From Escherichia phage RobRod40: DNA of 47,574 nt. Every line of letters begins with the position of its first letter. The first letter of the stretch is position 1. Under the pieces are notes generated by a model. That model was not told where the DNA came from and did not search any database. It saw only the letters and a program-made list of their open reading frames with translations. Below are positions 4,975 to 44,851 of the stretch, in pieces. A program made the translations under genes and the position numbers. The stretch is from sequence record OR896835.1. One strand, written 5' to 3'.

Positions 4975-5496
4975 ATGGCAATTCGTTCCGTAGCACTGGC
5001 TGGTATGGTTTCTGATACCTCTCTCTATAACATCGACGGCGCTTGTGTTGTTGGTGGCGCAGCAGCAATTCCTGTTGGCACTGTCGTTGGTGTTACATCC
5101 GCTCAGCCTGTAGATGGTCACAAGGTTGTTGGCCTTCCCGCCGTAACTGGTACGCCAGTCAAACCTTATGGTGTTGTTGTTAAATCTCATTACGAGACCC
5201 CAGATGGTACGGCTCGCGTAAATGAAGCAGTTAACGTAATGACTCATGGTCGCATCTGGGTACGCACCACTCTAGCAGCTGCGCCAGTTTTTGGTAGCAA
5301 GGTTTTCGTAAACGCAAGTGGTGTTGTTGTTGCTGAAGCGGCTGGCACTACTTGGGAGACTGGTTTTACATTTGCTGGTGGTTATGCGTCTGCTTATGCT
5401 GGCGGCGCTAACCCAATCAAGCAAGGTGAAAGCTACGATGGTGCAATCGTTGAGGTTCAGCTGATTCAATCCGCTGACTCAGCTGTCGCAGCTTAA
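4975..5496 (+). CDS. putative capsid decoration / structural protein
   Basis: 173 aa, Gly/Val/Ala-rich; strong RBS TAAGGAG; followed by rho-independent terminator; position between scaffold and capsid. Confidence 0.45.
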   Translation: MAIRSVALAGMVSDTSLYNIDGACVVGGAAAIPVGTVVGVTSAQPVDGHKVVGLPAVTGTPVKPYGVVVKSHYETPDGTARVNEAVNVMTHGRIWVRTTLAAAPVFGSKVFVNASGVVVAEAAGTTWETGFTFAGGYASAYAGGANPIKQGESYDGAIVEVQLIQSADSAVAA

Positions 5497-5502
5497 TTAC
5501 AC

Positions 5503-5523
5503 GGCCCTTCGGGGCCTTTTTTA
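5503..5523 (+). terminator. rho-independent terminator
   Basis: GGCCC-ttcg-GGGCC hairpin then TTTTTT. Confidence 0.75.
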
Positions 5524-5534
5524 ATGGAGGCTTT

Positions 5535-6080
5535 ATGATAAAAGTATTTTCTGGTGACTTCGAGTTCGCGCATGAGGCTGATGCATTTCTTAATGATGCA
5601 ATTTCCTCAGGATTCAAATATCTAGTTAGATCTCTGAGCACATCACAAATGATTCAGGCCTATAGTCGCAGCGACACAACGCCAGGGAAAGGGGTTATAA
5701 GAAAGGACGGGGTGAGAGTTTTGGGTGTAGCCCTGTCTGACGACCCTAGATGCGGAGAATTGGTTGATGAATTTTCGGTTTTTAAGTCAGCGGAGTATGA
5801 GGAGTATACCCATGAGATTGATGGTGTATGGGTTAACTATATCCACAATGACTTCTTAGATAAATTAAATGATGGCTGGAGGACGGTTACAGACAACAGC
5901 GTATCTCCTTTAAGCTACTACTATCAGGTGTTGACGTGGTCATGGGAGTACAGCTACTATTACACAAGATCATCATCAACTTATGGTATTTGCTTTTTGG
6001 CTAGATTTGCAAATCATGATTCAACTAAAAAGTCTGGTTGGGCTTTAGTCAAGTACGAAGAAGTTGACTCTCCAGAGTAA
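5535..6080 (+). CDS. hypothetical protein (terminator-flanked, moron-like)
   Basis: 181-aa ORF, RBS GGAGG; flanked on both sides by strong terminators; Tyr/Ser-rich C-terminus. Confidence 0.55.
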   Translation: MIKVFSGDFEFAHEADAFLNDAISSGFKYLVRSLSTSQMIQAYSRSDTTPGKGVIRKDGVRVLGVALSDDPRCGELVDEFSVFKSAEYEEYTHEIDGVWVNYIHNDFLDKLNDGWRTVTDNSVSPLSYYYQVLTWSWEYSYYYTRSSSTYGICFLARFANHDSTKKSGWALVKYEEVDSPE

Positions 6081-6085
6081 ATTAA

Positions 6086-6109
6086 AGCCTCCTTCGGGAG
6101 GTTTTTTTA
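6086..6109 (+). terminator. rho-independent terminator
   Basis: CCTCC-ttcg-GGAGG hairpin then TTTTTTT. Confidence 0.75.
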
Positions 6110-6161
6110 TGCCTGTAATCTGTTAGACTTATTAAGTATATTAACCAATCAGGAGATTAAG

Positions 6162-7595
6162 ATGGCTAGTGAATTAAGAGCAGTGACTGCTGGTACTGCC
6201 CATGCCCTAAAGCAAAAAATCACCGAATACATAGCTGAAGGTTGGCAGCCTTATGGCAGGATCCTTAATGCTGGGGCGACAAGTGTTGGCATTATAATGG
6301 CGAAAGGTACTGAGGCAAACATTACTGATGTTGATGTTATTACCGCAGATTCAAGGGCTTCCTTAGTTTCTAAGATTAACTCATCCATAGAAAATGGATT
6401 TGAGATGTTCGGCGAGCAGGAAGTGAACGCAAGTAGATTTATCGCATTCATGACTAAAGGGTCTCAAGGTTCATCTGGTGGCGGTGGTGAACCTGGACCA
6501 ATTGGACCAAAGGGTGATAAGGGAGATAAGGGTGACAAGGGAGACGTTGGTGAGCGCGGACCCGCTGGCGTAGCTGGTTCTGCTGGCGCTACAGGCCCGA
6601 CAGGCCCTCAGGGTTTAACTGGACCTGCTGGCGAAAAAGGTGATACTGGAGAGCAAGGCCCAATTGGCCCTACTGGTCCCACTGGCCCAAAGGGTGATAC
6701 TGGCGCAACTGGCCCCGCCGGACCGCAAGGCCCAAGAGGATTGCAAGGTGAACAGGGGGTTCCGGGCGAGGTTGGACCGGCTGGCTTGACATTCCAGGGC
6801 GCATGGGATTCTGCCTCCACATATGTGAAGGATGACACTGTAGTTTATGATGGATCTACTTGGTTTGCTCCAGATGCTGTAGCCTCAGGTTTGGTTCCAG
6901 GTGTTGCTCCTGAGTGGATCCTTTTAGCTGCACAAGGCGCAAGGGGAGAGGATGGTCCGCAGGGTCCGGTTGGCCCTCAGGGTTTACAGGGTGCCACTGG
7001 CCCGGCAGGTCCTACTGGCGCTACTGGCGCTACAGGTCCGCAAGGTCCCAGAGGTATACAAGGTCAAACCGGCCCGGCAGGTCCAGCAGGTCCTCAGGGT
7101 GAGGCTGGTCCTCAGGGTATTCAGGGACCACAGGGTATCGCTGGACCTCAGGGATTAACTGGCCCTCAGGGTCCAAAGGGTGATAAAGGTGATGCTCCTT
7201 ACACATTGTTTAACTCGCAGAACGTTACATCAACATACATTGAAATCCCCATTCCGCAAGTAACCAACACTGTACTTAGGGTTAGGCTTTCAGGTGCCAA
7301 CTTTGAATATAGCGTTTTAAGTAAAGGTGGCGCTAATAGATATGTTGACTTTTACACATTCATCCCGTCATTAACCAGCTCAACGGGTAACATCTATACC
7401 GGAGGAACCACCTTAACACCAACTGGTAGTCTTTTTTTGGGTAATTCCCCTGTGGCTCTCGGGTTAAGGGAGTTGACAATAACACTTAAGGAATGGGGTG
7501 ACAGGACACTAACTACAATAAAGGCGATACATCACGGCAGATCAGGTGACACAACAAGACCCTTGCAGATAACTATGTTTAGTAATAAGTATTAA
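6162..7595 (+). CDS. collagen-like repeat fibre protein
   Basis: Two long Gly-X-Y repeat tracts interrupted by a [13 protein letters not shown] tail-fibre-like segment; non-collagenous N- and C-terminal domains. Confidence 0.8.
6513..6548 (+). repeat. tandem 9-bp coding repeats (GGTGATAAG-like x4) in collagen-like gene
   Basis: ggtgataag ggagataag ggtgacaag ggagacgtt encoding [11 protein letters not shown]. Confidence 0.7.
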
Positions 7596-7609
7596 CAAAA
7601 AGCCCACCA

Positions 7610-7637
7610 TTGCGTGGGCTAAAAACTCGTGTATAAT
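7610..7637 (+). promoter_or_regulatory. candidate promoter for major capsid gene (TTGCGT-16-TGTATAAT)
   Basis: Perfect TATAAT at 7632-7637 with upstream TG; -35 region overlaps hairpin 7601-7620. Confidence 0.4.
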
Positions 7638-7675
7638 AAACCCGTAGACACCTAACTGAAAAGGAACAATAAAGA

Positions 7676-8620
7676 ATGGCCATTAAATTTGATGCAGAAC
7701 AAGCAAAAATCACCGCTCACCTCGAGCAAATGGGCGTAGATAAAGCTGATGCCGCCGGTATCTGGACCGTTAAGCAGCTGACCGCCACCCTGAATCGTGC
7801 TTACGAAAAAGAATATGCAGACAACTCCGTTGTTAACATCTTCCCTGTAACCAATGAAATCCCTGGTCACGCTAAGTATTTCGAATATCCAGAATTTGAT
7901 GGCGTTGGTATTGCTCAGATTATCGCGGATTACTCTGACGACCTGCCGCTGGTTGATGCTTTCATGACAGAGAAGCAAGGTAAAGTTTTCCGTTTCGGTA
8001 ACGCATTCCTGATTTCTACTGATGAAATTAAAGCAGGCGCTGCTACTGGTCAGTCTCTGTCAACTCGCAAACAGGCACTGGCTTTCGAAGCGCACGACAA
8101 CCTGCTGGATAAACTGGTTTGGTCTGGATCCACTCCGCACGGTATCGTGAGCGTATTCGACCAGCCGAACATCAACAACGTTGTTGCAACACCAGACTGG
8201 AGCGAGCCGCTGAACGCAATTAATGACGTTACTGCAATGATTGATGCGGTTGAGACTTCAACTCAGGGCTTCCATCACGTGACTGATATTCTACTTCCGG
8301 CATCTGCTCGCCGAGTAATGCAGGTTCTTGTTCCGAGTACTACCCTGAGCTACGGTGAGCTGTTCACCCGTAATAATCCGGGCCTGACTATTCGTTACAT
8401 GCAGTTCCTGGATAACTACGATGGCGCAGGTGGTAAGGCTGCTCTGGCGTTTGAAAAGAACCCGTTGAATATGTCTATCGAGATTCCAGAAGCTACAAAC
8501 GTACTTCCTGGTCAGCCGAAAGACTTGCACTTCAAGTACCCAGTAACTTCTAAAGCGACCGGTCTGATTGTTTATCGCCCTCTGACGATGGCAGTAATCA
8601 AAGGTATTACCTTCGCGTAA
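7676..8620 (+). CDS. major capsid protein
   Basis: 314 aa; own promoter with perfect TATAAT; strong terminator downstream; position in head module. Confidence 0.75.
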   Translation: MAIKFDAEQAKITAHLEQMGVDKADAAGIWTVKQLTATLNRAYEKEYADNSVVNIFPVTNEIPGHAKYFEYPEFDGVGIAQIIADYSDDLPLVDAFMTEKQGKVFRFGNAFLISTDEIKAGAATGQSLSTRKQALAFEAHDNLLDKLVWSGSTPHGIVSVFDQPNINNVVATPDWSEPLNAINDVTAMIDAVETSTQGFHHVTDILLPASARRVMQVLVPSTTLSYGELFTRNNPGLTIRYMQFLDNYDGAGGKAALAFEKNPLNMSIEIPEATNVLPGQPKDLHFKYPVTSKATGLIVYRPLTMAVIKGITFA

Positions 8621-8626
8621 TAAATC

Positions 8627-8649
8627 GCCCTCTTCGGAGGGCTTTTTTA
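8627..8649 (+). terminator. rho-independent terminator after major capsid gene
   Basis: GCCCTC-ttcg-GAGGGC hairpin then TTTTTT. Confidence 0.8.
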
Positions 8650-10211: not shown

Positions 10212-10602
10212 ATTATCTATAGCAGCCAGAAAATATGTTAATGATTTGCTGGTGAGCAACTTCCCTGTCAGATATCCAGTATCCTGGGAAAATGTTTCTT
10301 TCACTCCTCCAGCAGATGGCTCTATCTGGCTAAAGTATGACTATATCGAGGTTGATACCGTAACCTACGGACTTAGCAGGAAGTGCAAATACTATGTAGG
10401 AATGGTGCAGGTTTCTGTTTTCTTTAGCCCTGGTACTGGCATTGACAAGCCGAGACAAATCGCTAATCAATTGGCAGAATCTATCGTTGATGGTACAATG
10501 CTTGACAGCGGGACCATTTATGAGTCTGGAGTTGTTAACCCGGTTATCAAATCCAAATCTGGGTGGTTTATCCCGGTTCATTTTTATGTTCGTCTAGACT
10601 AG
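10201..10602 (+). CDS. putative tail terminator-like protein
   Basis: GTG start preceded by GGAGG; overlaps upstream stop; position before major tail gene. Confidence 0.4.
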   Translation: MHYELSIAARKYVNDLLVSNFPVRYPVSWENVSFTPPADGSIWLKYDYIEVDTVTYGLSRKCKYYVGMVQVSVFFSPGTGIDKPRQIANQLAESIVDGTMLDSGTIYESGVVNPVIKSKSGWFIPVHFYVRLD

Positions 10603-10610
10603 GAACTAGC

Positions 10611-11096
10611 ATGAAAGATTTCTTAAATTCTCTTTACGATTATCGCGATGGAAAGATTTACAAGAAGGGCGGTGATAAACCATGTGGTTACGGTAAGACA
10701 AATGGCTACGTTCAAACATACGTTTCAAAGACTGGTAAGCGATATGTTCATAGATTGATCTGGGAAATGCATAATGGTGAAATTGCATATGGAATGCAGA
10801 TAGATCACATTAATGGTGTTAGGGATGATAATCGAATTGAGAATTTAAGATGCGTGACCGTAACTGATAACAGAAGAAATGCTGGAACCAGGTATCGCTC
10901 ACGTAGATTTCCTGGAGTTAATGGAGTAAACTACAACAAGCGCGATGATCTTTGGCATGCAATTATTTCTGACAAAGGAAGAGCAAGGAGTCTTGGTCAT
11001 TATAAGAGTTTTGTCTCAGCTTGCGAAGCAAGGATTGTCGCTGAAGTATTATTGGGATATCACGCTGGTCACGCAATGCGGGATAGCGTTTATTAA
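10611..11096 (+). CDS. HNH homing endonuclease (paralog 2)
   Basis: ATG at 10611 after AGGA; HRLIWEMHNG and IDHINGVRDDNRIENLR motifs; inserted between tail-completion and major tail genes. Confidence 0.85.
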   Translation: MKDFLNSLYDYRDGKIYKKGGDKPCGYGKTNGYVQTYVSKTGKRYVHRLIWEMHNGEIAYGMQIDHINGVRDDNRIENLRCVTVTDNRRNAGTRYRSRRFPGVNGVNYNKRDDLWHAIISDKGRARSLGHYKSFVSACEARIVAEVLLGYHAGHAMRDSVY

Positions 11097-11813: not shown

Positions 11814-11857
11814 ATAGCACTTTTTGCTAAAGCACTTATTCAACTTTGATGTATAGT
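11814..11857 (+). promoter_or_regulatory. conserved promoter-like module (ATAGCAC-ttt-TTGCTAAA, 22 bp, TATAGT)
   Basis: Directly after major-tail terminator; followed by TACTTCATCGAAACGA leader; precedes lipoprotein gene. Confidence 0.6.
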
Positions 11858-23174: not shown

Positions 23175-23310
23175 CTTGCATTCCTTGTTAAGTTGCTTAG
23201 TTTCGATGTGGTAATAATACAGCCGTCTCTGCGGAATGTCTTTAGCTATTCGTGCTATTGCATACGCGTAACCGATGTAACTCGATGTATACAATCTCAT
23301 CCGCGGAAAA

Positions 23311-24884: not shown

Positions 24885-24928
24885 ATAGCACGAATTGCTA
24901 AAGACAAGATCAAAAGGTGGGGTATGAT
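24885..24928 (+). promoter_or_regulatory. conserved promoter-like module (ATAGCAC-gaa-TTGCTAAA, 22 bp, TATGAT)
   Basis: Palindrome GGGGTAtgatTACCCC spans the -10-like hexamer; precedes erf. Confidence 0.6.
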
Positions 24929-24957
24929 TACCCCATCAACAACGAACGAGGTTAAAG

Positions 24958-28507: not shown

Positions 28508-28530
28508 TAAAAAAACCTCCCGAAGGAGGT
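28508..28530 (-). terminator. rho-independent terminator (minus strand, after primase-like gene)
   Basis: CCTCC-cgaa-GGAGG hairpin with A-run on + strand (T-run on minus). Confidence 0.7.
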
Positions 28531-29453
28531 TAGTCTAGTAATTCACTTGCCTTGTATATTCGCTTTCTTATGCCTGACTTGAAAAAATTATCATCATTTG
28601 GTATTACAACATCAAGATTACGATCGTCAGCAACGGCAAGTAAATCAAAAGCGTGGCGAGTACAAGCGATGCGTAACTTGTAGTTTCTAAGCGCGTAAGC
28701 AACCATTTCCATGTTGTAGCAGGAGTGGCAAACAAGTACGCAGCGGTTGCCAGTAGCAAGATGAGCGCGAATACCATCAATCCAATTATCGACCAGATAA
28801 GCGTACTCATCATCCTTAAATGAACCAATAACAGAAACAGATTGGCGAGTATAATCTTTTGCAGCATAACTAACATTCCCCTCTTCATTGATAAACATTA
28901 CATTGCACATTTCTTCTGATATACCGTCACTATAAGCCATAAAGCACGGTACTGCGTGGATTAGTTCTCCTGACTTTGCCCTGCCAACATCAAAACCGAA
29001 CTCACTATAAATACCCTCGTATGTACTGAGCGGCGTTGATTCTACTCTTTCCGTCCTTTCCATTATCTCTAAGCATCTTTCGTGGTCAATCTGAGCGCCC
29101 ATTTTGTAGATCTGAGTTCTTGATGCTTGCTTGTTTGCTTTAACTATAACCTCAATTGGTGTTAAGTTCAGCCAGTCACCAAGCAAATTTACTGAATCGG
29201 CGAAGGACGATCCAGTGCACTTCATGACCCATCCTATACCGGAGTCACTTCCGCATTTCGAACAAACTGCCGCGCCATTTCCTTTTTCACTGCCTATTTC
29301 GTCGGTAAATCTGAATCTGTCAGTGCCAAAGCAGTATGGGCATGGTCCGTGCTTCTTACTTAGGTGCCTATCATTCCAACCAAGCTCCTTTGCATAAAAT
29401 GATTTCCACAATCCGGCCATCTTAGGTATAACTTCATTCTTATCGTAACTCAT
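28530..29453 (-). CDS. putative DNA primase (zinc-finger containing)
   Basis: CPYCFG...CSKCG zinc-binding motif near N-terminus; position in replication block. Confidence 0.5.
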   Translation of the reverse strand: MSYDKNEVIPKMAGLWKSFYAKELGWNDRHLSKKHGPCPYCFGTDRFRFTDEIGSEKGNGAAVCSKCGSDSGIGWVMKCTGSSFADSVNLLGDWLNLTPIEVIVKANKQASRTQIYKMGAQIDHERCLEIMERTERVESTPLSTYEGIYSEFGFDVGRAKSGELIHAVPCFMAYSDGISEEMCNVMFINEEGNVSYAAKDYTRQSVSVIGSFKDDEYAYLVDNWIDGIRAHLATGNRCVLVCHSCYNMEMVAYALRNYKLRIACTRHAFDLLAVADDRNLDVVIPNDDNFFKSGIRKRIYKASELLD

Positions 29454-32551: not shown

Positions 32552-32971
32552 ATGAAAATTACAGATAAGGTTGATTACATTGAGTTTTACCCAGGTCCTG
32601 TTAAGTCATGCCCTAAAGAGGATGACGAACAAATCTTTTGCTCTGATTGGGTTAAGTATAACTACCCAGAGATGGTATTTTTCCACTGCGTGAATGAGGG
32701 TAAGAAAACCATTGGACAAGCAAGAAAGGACCAGGCTAAAGGATTGCTTAAAGGGGTTTCGGACTGCTTATTCCTGATACCTGAATCTCTACGAGGCAAA
32801 TACCCTTTTGGAGCCATAGAGCTAAAGAGGGCCGGGAAGACCCAAGCTAGCCCAGTCAGTGGCGAGCAGAAGTCCTTCCTTAAAAGCGTGAGAGAGTCAG
32901 GTGGTTTTGCCGCAGTGGCCTACGGTCGTGAAGGTTTTCTGGCAGCATTCAAAGAAATGATTTCAAAATAG
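32552..32971 (+). CDS. VRR-NUC domain nuclease
   Basis: FHCVNEG, GVSDCLFL, GAIELKRAGK and Q..FL...G pattern matching the VRR-NUC PD-(D/E)XK layout. Confidence 0.7.
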   Translation: MKITDKVDYIEFYPGPVKSCPKEDDEQIFCSDWVKYNYPEMVFFHCVNEGKKTIGQARKDQAKGLLKGVSDCLFLIPESLRGKYPFGAIELKRAGKTQASPVSGEQKSFLKSVRESGGFAAVAYGREGFLAAFKEMISK

Positions 32972-33011
32972 CACGAATTGCTAAATACGAATCGGTGAGG
33001 TGGTGTATTAT
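32968..33011 (+). promoter_or_regulatory. conserved promoter-like module (ATAGCAC-gaa-TTGCTAAA, 22 bp, TATTAT)
   Basis: Palindrome GAGGTGgtgtattatCACCTC spans -10; leader CATCGAAACGAAAC. Confidence 0.6.
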
Positions 33012-33047
33012 CACCTCATCGAAACGAAACACAGAGAGAGAAACAAA

Positions 33048-41947: not shown

Positions 41948-41976
41948 TTGACTTACAGGTTAACCATCAATATAAT
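41948..41976 (+). promoter_or_regulatory. near-consensus sigma70-type promoter (TTGACT-17-TATAAT)
   Basis: Canonical hexamers and spacing upstream of 42015 operon; followed by ATCATCGAAACAACAAACGA leader. Confidence 0.6.
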
Positions 41977-43142: not shown

Positions 43143-43886
43143 ATGAACAGATATGAGCCACGCATCTATCAGACACTATCAGGCTATTTTTCAGCCGCAA
43201 TGAGACGCCACTACAATGGAACGTACATCACCTACGAATCGCATAAGCAGGAAATTGAGTATCTACAGGCGCGTTTAAAGGCGTTAGAATCGAAGCAAAA
43301 AGACTCGATTTCAATCTCTTCAATTATTGCCGAGCACGTAGATGATGCGATTCGTAAATCCATTGGCGAGGCTGTTCACCAGGCAATTGATGAGATGTTC
43401 AAGGCTGAGTACAAATACAATGGCGATCCGTGCCATAGCGCAGTTGACTCAATCCTGGATGAGCTGGCTGTCGCCCCTGGTAAAACAGTTAAGGATGACA
43501 CCTATAGCGTCGCCGATGGATTGACGAAGAACGGTAAATTCACTTTCGGTAGTAATTTCGGTGAAGGAAAGGAGTTTACAATGCCAGTAGGCGAAACCGA
43601 ATCAGAGCATGGTCGCAAGGTGGCTGTTTGTTACTACGTTGCAGGCAATGCAAACGCATTCATCAAAGGCTGTGAGTATGAGTATGAAGTTGATGAATGT
43701 GAACCTGGGTGTGAGCCTCGAATCATTCATATCGTTCAAGATGCCTTCGTTTCTGATTTAAAATGTGAGCAACGATGGGATGCAAGAAAAGTCGGTGAAT
43801 TCAGGGATGCAAACGGCAAACTTGGTGACGCATACGTCATCGTTAAGCCTGGCGGCGGAGTTGTAGCTCAATTTTATATCAAATAG
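43143..43886 (+). CDS. hypothetical protein
   Basis: 247-aa ORF with promoter-like module upstream; Cys pairs near C-terminus. Confidence 0.55.
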   Translation: MNRYEPRIYQTLSGYFSAAMRRHYNGTYITYESHKQEIEYLQARLKALESKQKDSISISSIIAEHVDDAIRKSIGEAVHQAIDEMFKAEYKYNGDPCHSAVDSILDELAVAPGKTVKDDTYSVADGLTKNGKFTFGSNFGEGKEFTMPVGETESEHGRKVAVCYYVAGNANAFIKGCEYEYEVDECEPGCEPRIIHIVQDAFVSDLKCEQRWDARKVGEFRDANGKLGDAYVIVKPGGGVVAQFYIK

Positions 43887-43926
43887 CACGTTTTGTTAAA
43901 AGGGGATTCATCCTGACCGGTATAAT
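43883..43926 (+). promoter_or_regulatory. conserved promoter-like module (ATAGCAC-gtt-TTGTTAAA, 22 bp, TATAAT)
   Basis: Palindrome GGGGATT...AATCCCC spans -10; stop TAG embedded. Confidence 0.6.
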
Positions 43927-43998
43927 CCCCGCATCAACCACACTAATGGAAGTCAAGTGACGATATACGAACATAAATTTAGTAGCAGGGGTATTGAT

Positions 43999-44638: not shown

Positions 44639-44781
44639 TTTACATCCACACGTACTACACTGGTAAGTTTAACAGCGTTAAGCATGTTCGTGTTTATGAA
44701 TCCATAATTGATGCACTCAAGCAGCAGGCAGTTCTTGGTGGTACAATTAAGTACTGTGAAGTAATCCAAGAATACAAATAG
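44635..44781 (+). CDS. small hypothetical protein (48 aa)
   Basis: ATGA overlap with upstream gene; stop TAG embedded in next promoter-like module. Confidence 0.35.
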   Translation: MIYIHTYYTGKFNSVKHVRVYESIIDALKQQAVLGGTIKYCEVIQEYK

Positions 44782-44821
44782 CACTAATTGTTAAAATAGC
44801 ATTGGGGTAATTTGTTATAGT
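44778..44821 (+). promoter_or_regulatory. conserved promoter-like module (ATAGCAC-taa-TTGTTAAA, 22 bp, TATAGT)
   Basis: Palindrome GGGGTAatttgttatagtTACCCC spans -10; leader CATCGAAGCGA. Confidence 0.6.
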
Positions 44822-44851
44822 TACCCCATCGAAGCGAATGAGGACAAACAG

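Follow-up and report, generated by a model that had tools for sequence, protein, structure and literature searches.

The window analyzed here, the whole 47,574-nucleotide stretch of DNA from Escherichia phage RobRod40 (OR896835.1), carries a stem-loop directly upstream of the major capsid protein gene, at a site where two overlapping elements of different origin would meet: a sigma70-type capsid promoter and the 3' stem-loop of a fibre-gene cassette. The explanation that we favor, and that we consider to have about an even chance of being correct, is that the hairpin is the terminator-derived 3' stem-loop of this optional cassette, fused to the capsid promoter, and that it may stabilize the fibre RNA. 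The left half of the structure (A-run plus AGCC) would then have been brought by the cassette; the loop and right arm are the -35 element and spacer of the promoter. The features that bear on this explanation are collected in Table 1.

Table 1. Features of the capsid promoter region and of the adjoining cassette, in window coordinates
Feature	Position	Strand	Remarks
Cement/decoration protein gene	4975-5496	+	PF22758; followed by a terminator
Orphan 181-aa ORF	5535-6080	+	No Pfam match; between terminators 5503-5522 and 6088-6107
Intrinsic terminator CCTCCTTCGGGAGG + T7	6088-6107	+	Canonical; tail score 5.03; left edge of fibre cassette
Optional fibre/decoration gene, 477 aa	6162-7595	+	DUF1737 N-terminus, collagen repeats, variable C-terminal domain
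Left A-run	7596-7600	+	Belongs to 3' end of fibre cassette; T-run when read on the minus strand
Stem-loop AGCCCAC-cattgc-GTGGGCT	7601-7620	+	A-runs on both sides
5' arm AGCCCAC	7601-7607	+	AGCC from fibre cassette; CAC common to cassette-less phages
Loop CATTGC	7608-7613	+	Holds first 4 bases of -35; invariant in all Rtp-like relatives
-35 TTGCGT	7610-7615	+	3/6 consensus matches, TTG kept; BPROM-annotated in SU57 (L003 3008-3035)
3' arm GTGGGCT	7614-7620	+	Last 2 bases of -35 and first 5 of promoter spacer
Right A-run AAAAA	7621-7625	+	Within 16-nt promoter spacer; conserved with or without hairpin
-10 TATAAT	7632-7637	+	6/6 consensus matches; TATAAT-like -10 in all 80 related loci
Major capsid protein gene	7676-8620	+	PF09950

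Structure of the hairpin

Read from 5' to 3', the region is TAT TAA CAAAA AGCCCAC CATTGC GTGGGCT AAAAA CTCGTG TATAAT. The stop codon of the fibre gene (TAA, 7593 to 7595) is shortly followed by the GC-rich stem-loop, whose stem of 7 bp, including 5 GC pairs, begins 5 nt beyond it. Sequence and folding both bear out the first-pass annotation in its description of a hairpin with A-runs on both sides. The predicted plus-strand RNA fold reached -12.6 kcal/mol (z -2.8 in 46 nt and -4.0 in 36 nt) and the minus-strand fold -13.4 kcal/mol, with pair probabilities of at least 0.93 in contexts of 200 to 360 nt. Perfect 7-bp GC-rich hairpins with loops of 3 to 8 nt occur 17 times in the window, compared to 4.9 ± 2.5 in dinucleotide shuffles, and most of them are intergenic terminators; the chance expectation of such a perfect 7-bp hairpin in an 80-nt spacer is roughly 0.01. 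The hairpin is a real but ordinary feature. Scanning positions 7300 to 7900 against Rfam yielded just a sub-threshold match on the minus strand to RF02278 (19.5 bits versus a gathering score of 50, E 0.2), which we treated as chance matching to a terminator-like stem.

The capsid promoter

The promoter that shares bases with the hairpin is of the sigma70 type, consisting of TTGCGT, 16 nt, and TATAAT, with 38 nt between the end of the -10 and the capsid ATG. The overlap of the hairpin with the -35 had been pointed out before and holds at the level of single bases, the loop carrying TTGC and the 3' arm providing the rest of the -35 together with the start of the spacer. The pattern TTGnnn, N16-17, TAtaAT lies upstream of the capsid gene in 80 of 80 related loci, which encode capsid proteins 51 to 96% identical, and the flanks diverge. 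In the window, this is the only plus-strand site that has a perfect -10, TTG at the -35, and TG just before the -10; the -10 at 41948 is perfect as well but lacks the preceding TG. The capsid promoter is among the best promoter matches in the genome, and the identical 28 bases are annotated as a promoter in SU57 (BPROM). Judging from these alignments, the promoter, conserved across Drexlerviridae, is the conserved functional element at the site. Since the 5' arm is missing in phages that keep the promoter, the promoter appears to work without the hairpin and not to need it. Transcription would start near position 7644, and capsid mRNA from this promoter would thus not contain the hairpin. The hexamer TTAACA at 7592 to 7597, considered as an alternative -35, was rejected, as it lies 34 nt from the -10. 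A literature search for mapped transcripts in T1-like, Rtp-like, or other Drexlerviridae phages found none, yielding only in silico promoter and terminator predictions (TLS, PMC11447400).

The perfect dyad symmetry centred on the -35 could also be read as a palindromic operator, at which a dimeric regulator would bind AGCCCAC-N6-GTGGGCT and control capsid transcription; a protein-binding site was indeed among the roles first suggested for the hairpin. However, neither the palindrome (allowing up to 2 mismatches) nor the promoter core has a second copy in the window, and this single-copy occurrence speaks against both an operator and a repeat family. Moreover, most phages that have the identical promoter lack the left half-site, and phage UDF157lw loses the DNA symmetry yet keeps the RNA pairing. 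We therefore reject the operator as extremely improbable.

The fibre cassette and the origin of the 5' arm

The window belongs to an Rtp-like Drexlerviridae coliphage (Rtp/T1-like), and the region is 94.5% identical to that of Bas01 AugustePiccard and 88.7% identical to that of e4/1c. Its gene order is prohead protease, cement protein, terminator, 181-aa ORF, terminator, fibre, hairpin, and major capsid protein. The fibre gene is absent in Rtp, JeanPiccard, and SU57 and decayed in IME253 and ZL19. No convincing -35/-10 pair was seen by eye at positions 6108 to 6161 as a cassette promoter, and the fibre gene is presumably transcribed via terminator read-through.

In the Rtp-type phages (Rtp, JeanPiccard, and IME253 sequences), the terminator found at 6088 to 6107 in the window stands directly beside the capsid promoter. 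Rtp, JeanPiccard, two further loci (L014 and L016), and metagenome loci show a T-run, then ACAC, ATAC, or ATGT, and then CATTGCGTGGGCT, with no 5' arm. In cassette-less phages of the Rtp type, the same terminator, AAAGCCTCCTTCGGGAGG-T7, thus abuts ACAC/ATAC/ATGT-CATTGCGTGGGCTAAAAACTCGTGTATAAT; the loop, the 3' arm, and the promoter are present, and AGCC is missing. In a 101-nt search of 50,697 phage records, matches extended left of position ∼7599 only in records with the fibre gene or a remnant of it. SU57 and locus L024 retain 13 nt of the left end of the cassette (ATTGCCCGTCATC, like 6108 to 6119), joined to CCCAC or TCAT, which marks them on sequence grounds as deletion derivatives. Where the 5' arm is missing, the 3' arm drifts to GTGGGGT, GTGGGTT, or GTGGTCT. 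A metagenome scan with a degenerate promoter/5' UTR pattern returned 9 loci, all of them either cassette-less or of the L017 type described below, and among these 9 there were no new variants of the window-type stem; scanning viral contigs with the degenerate pattern gave no further loci beyond those already compared.

Taken at face value, these comparisons mean that the hairpin travels with the fibre gene and that the 5' arm is dispensable overall, as many phages lack it. Conservation in related phages, to which the first-pass annotation had looked as a check, is therefore divided: the promoter and the loop are conserved, but the 5' arm occurs only with the fibre gene or its remnant. A symmetric design of the two A-runs was considered and rejected, since the left run goes with the cassette, whereas the right run, conserved in all relatives, is part of the promoter spacer; given these two origins, the symmetrical A-flanked look is a coincidence.

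Two observations concern the variability of this part of the genome. The decayed fibre genes of IME253 (L005 2820-3010) and ZL19 (L006), unannotated in both records, start with MASELRAA, are then interrupted by a premature stop, have lost a large internal segment, and keep the last ∼50 codons and the intact hairpin. In Bas01, a gene for a 430-aa "head outer capsid protein" takes the place of the orphan ORF, and positions 5535 to 6080 represent a second variable slot next to the fibre cassette.

Termination signals on either strand

The reported lack of a plus-strand T-run was corroborated. The plus-strand tail, AAAAACTCGTG, contains no U-tract, and its score of 0.07 is the lowest of the 17 hairpins, compared to 2.7 to 5.0 for the phage's own plus-strand terminators; within the plus-strand structural block, the capsid-promoter hairpin is the sole one with a T-less plus-strand tail. 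A U-tract after the stem is likewise absent on the plus strand in every relative. Intrinsic termination in E. coli needs a U-tract, and intrinsic termination is thus not expected on the plus strand. With AAAAA instead of a U-tract after the stem, polymerase coming from the fibre gene would be expected to read into the capsid gene.

For the homologous hairpin of MM01 (L104, 1504-1521), GenBank carries an ARNold call (-13.9) of a putative terminator, though no plus-strand U-tract follows the stem; this call is probably a mis-annotation, or was made on the minus strand. Together with the stable stem immediately upstream of the -10, the call could be taken to favor a weak plus-strand terminator or pause site that cuts fibre read-through and protects the capsid promoter from occlusion. 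We nevertheless regard such a function as highly improbable, given the five A's that follow the stem, the bottom rank of the tail, the U-tract requirement in E. coli, and the fact that no relative has a U-tract, though T's in the spacer would be tolerated.

On the minus strand, the hairpin together with TTTTTGTT (tail TTTTTGTTAAT) scores 3.94, which is within the range of the phage's real terminators and equals the value of a genuine minus-strand terminator at 28514 to 28531 (4.0). The terminator scan flags the site on this strand only, so that by its form the hairpin could terminate only antisense transcription, just as had been proposed. An intrinsic minus-strand terminator that stops leftward antisense transcription from the capsid gene before it reaches the fibre gene would agree with these values and with the minus-strand folding energy. 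It would, however, have little to act on: consistent with what had been noted before, no credible minus-strand gene lies within about 18 kb, all credible genes there being on the plus strand. The nearby minus-strand ORFs are shadows inside the capsid gene, the first long ones appear from ∼26.1 kb, and the only nearby promoter-like site on the minus strand (7662 to 7633, 9/12 match, 6 nt away) would yield an RNA of ∼30 nt. Nor is the minus-strand T-run conserved, as MM01, Phagiculus, UDF157lw, and AHP42 keep a stem without it. The left A-run corresponds to AAAGA in IME253 and to TTAAC, TTAAT, or TTAAA in MM01, Phagiculus, and UDF157lw, and the minus-strand tail reads GTTAATGTTATGG in MM01 and TCTTTGTT in IME253. 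The stem of UDF157lw, moreover, pairs as plus-strand RNA only, and the left A-run is accounted for by the A-tract usual in bidirectional-style terminators such as that of phage A5-4 (see below). The suggested antisense barrier thus suits the form of the site in this phage but not in its stem-bearing relatives, and we consider it unlikely.

Pairing in fibre-bearing relatives

The stem varies among the phages that carry the fibre gene. MM01 and Phagiculus (Rogunavirinae) have GCCCGC-cattgc-GCGGGC, in which an A-U pair of the window is replaced by G-C. The stem of UDF157lw, AAGGUCGC/GCGGUCUU, includes two G·U pairs and forms in plus-strand RNA (-6.7), but the minus strand does not adopt this register; the stem is no better than shuffles (z -0.9). 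AHP42, BECP10, and AHS24 have a weaker stem of -7.9 kcal/mol in a shifted register. Across six distinct sequences, 88% of the cells were paired, versus at most 57% with the partner slid, and 2 pairs had changed on both sides. This level of covariation was reached by 10 of 500 shuffles, and it stems from ∼3 to 4 lineages and probably 2 to 3 mutational events. The alignment gives modest support to compensatory change that maintains plus-strand pairing where the fibre gene is present. Template-switch correction of quasi-palindromes could, however, produce matched changes without functional selection.

Among the roles put forward at first inspection, the most fitting is that of a 3' hairpin for the collagen-like mRNA, with the 5' arm found only together with the fibre gene and with compensatory and G·U changes that are specific to the plus strand; its stabilizing effect would be the conjectural part. 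We propose that the hairpin would fold in read-through RNAs from the fibre gene, that cleavage would take place in the downstream A/U-rich stretch, and that the hairpin would then block 3'-to-5' exonucleases, with the blocked decay stabilizing a low-abundance fibre message. We infer both read-through and RNA stabilization, the latter by analogy to known stem-loops, and if the hairpin has any role, that of a stabilizer is the most likely one.

Terminator ancestry and other occupants of the slot

The C-terminal domain of the fibre protein shares 48% identity with a domain from the Vequintavirinae phage A5-4, where the gene is followed by the canonical terminator AAAGCCACC-ttcg-GGTGGCTTT-ATTTTT. 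This terminator aligns base for base with the hairpin of the window, which suggests that in evolutionary terms the hairpin is a terminator stem and that the left A-run is the usual A-tract of such a terminator. The position of the ancestral U-tract is taken in the window by the A-rich spacer of the promoter.

Hairpins without a U-tract are also found at the ends of other accessory genes that occupy this slot; their sequences are unrelated, and they either abut the -35 or enclose it. In the L017 type, the hairpin is GGGCGACU-N19-AGUCGCCC, with TTGATT in the loop; G·U variants of it occur, and the predicted folding energy is -17.9 to -18.9 kcal/mol (z -3.2 to -5.0). Locus L023 has AGCCCA-agga-UGGGCU, and L013 has GCCUC-auggac-GAGGC, located 3' of a GDSL-lipase-like gene. 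This gene, a GDSL-lipase/acylhydrolase-like one at 1866 to 2909 of an Rtp-like contig, replaces the collagen fibre upstream of the capsid promoter.

A serious alternative, though in our estimation a clearly less probable one than the cassette stem-loop with a role in fibre RNA, is that the hairpin is a functionless relic, the 5' half of an old cassette terminator that came to stand beside a promoter whose spacer is, or descends from, the 3' half. Complementarity would then persist through recent ancestry and template-switch correction of the quasi-palindrome rather than through selection, which we likewise hold to be possible but doubtful. The relic would account for most relatives having an unchanged promoter without the 5' arm, for the small number of independent lineages, and for the weak stems of UDF157lw and the AHP42 group, and homology to the A5-4 terminator explains the origin of the hairpin without any present function. 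What speaks against it is that sequence-unrelated hairpins without U-tracts recur at the same position after different accessory genes (the L017 type, L023, and L013), that matched changes preserve pairing and the G·U solutions function on the plus strand only, and that drift at the outer 3'-arm positions is confined to phages without the 5' arm.

A stem brackets the capsid -35 in at least two unrelated sequence versions, that of the window and that of the L017 type. It is conceivable, but in our view a long shot, that hairpins enclosing promoter elements are a deliberate design in these phages. If so, promoter-bracketing stems could couple promoter activity to upstream read-through, either through a nascent-RNA hairpin forming as the incoming polymerase sits on the -10 or through extrusion of a DNA hairpin, and this would amount to a principle of regulation that has not been described in T1-like phages.

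Relation to known systems

The proposed stabilizing function has precedents in mRNA-stabilizing stem-loops, such as the REP hairpins of E. coli malE-malF and terminator hairpins that act as barriers to 3' exonucleases. Like these, the hairpin has a stable GC-rich stem directly after a cistron and no U-tract, so that transcription continues; by analogy, it would be expected to block PNPase and RNase II and thereby to uncouple the stability of the upstream message from that of the downstream one. In contrast to the REP family, the hairpin in the window is single-copy and shares bases with a promoter, and its stabilizing role is putative. It also resembles the intrinsic terminators at 6088 to 6107 and 8627 to 8642 and that of A5-4, having an A-tract, a GC-rich 7-bp stem of the AGCCC type, and a short loop after a stop codon, but its plus-strand U-tract is replaced by the AAAAA spacer, and a T-run is present on the minus strand only.

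The fibre gene itself is reminiscent of moron or accessory cassettes, as it occupies exactly the interval bounded by the cement-protein terminator on one side and the capsid promoter on the other and is present, decayed, or deleted in close relatives. It differs from these in having no clear cassette promoter at 6108 to 6161 and in its terminator, which lacks a U-tract and is merged with the resident promoter. Late "transcriptons" of the T1/TLS type have been described as RpoD promoters flanked by rho-independent terminators (PMC11447400). The capsid gene conforms to this organization in having a sigma70-type promoter of its own, which in Rtp-type genomes comes directly after a terminator; in this phage, unlike in transcriptons, the fibre gene and a non-terminating hairpin are located between the terminator and the promoter.

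The hairpin has little significance beyond annotation; a homologous stem is already annotated as a putative terminator in MM01, and the promoter is annotated in SU57. The hairpin marks the right boundary of a gain-and-loss cassette for a collagen-like capsid or virion fibre, which is useful for defining module boundaries in Drexlerviridae genomes and helps to avoid mis-annotating a plus-strand terminator here, as in MM01. For engineering, the insertion-tolerant slot that lies downstream of the cement-protein terminator and upstream of the capsid promoter could be of use.

Additional observations

An ORF resembling HNH_3 homing endonucleases (10563 to 11096, E 6e-21) is located between tail-assembly genes, with its sequence overlapping the end of the gene before it. 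The annotated coding sequences in the Rtp, Bas01, Bas02, and SU57 regions include no counterpart of this ORF.

In T1-like relatives (L028, L029, L033, L040, L044, L059, L064, and others), a conserved stem-loop is found at the start of the capsid 5' UTR, ∼5 to 35 nt after the -10, for example AGAGCCGTG...CGGCTCT or GAGGCTGTT...AACAGCCTT. It may be a 5' mRNA stabilizer. The capsid leader of the window contains no such 5' UTR stem-loop.

The repeat ATAGCACnnnTTGnTAAA occurs in 19 copies in the window, compared to 0.5 expected. Plus-strand copies are found, for example, at 2109 to 2126, 11814 to 11831, 24885 to 24902, 32968 to 32985, 43883 to 43900, 44778 to 44795, and 46998 to 47015, and minus-strand copies are found at 23241, 39426, 39857, and 41371. 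In phage TLS, this repeat has been reported as a 21-nt "direct repeat," its function being unknown there (PMC11447400). At a fixed spacing of ∼20 nt downstream of every copy there is a -10-like TATAnT, usually with CATCGAAACGA after it, and by their sequence the units resemble a family of phage promoters that lack a normal -35. Six to seven of the 19 promoter-like units ("ATAGCAC...TTGnTAAA") have an inverted repeat of varying sequence that brackets the -10, such as TGGGGTA-tgat-TACCCCA, GAGGTG...CACCTC, GGGGAT...ATCCCC, or GGGGTA...TACCCC, with no U-tract in any of them; these inverted repeats lie at 24918 to 24935, ∼32990 to 33015, ∼43903 to 43930, ∼44800 to 44825, and, on the minus strand, ∼39400. 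A hairpin around a promoter element is a theme common to these -10-bracketing repeats and the capsid hairpin. In T1-like relatives (L040, L044, L064, L066, and L067, at ∼2938 to 2955 on the plus strand, and others), the repeat ATAGCACnnnTTGnTAAA is found reversed inside the capsid promoter, as TTGCAC-g-TTTAACAAAAAGTGCTATcat; there it provides the spacer as well as an extended -10. At a homologous downstream intergenic site, the orientation of the repeat is opposite in T1-like and Rtp-like genomes.
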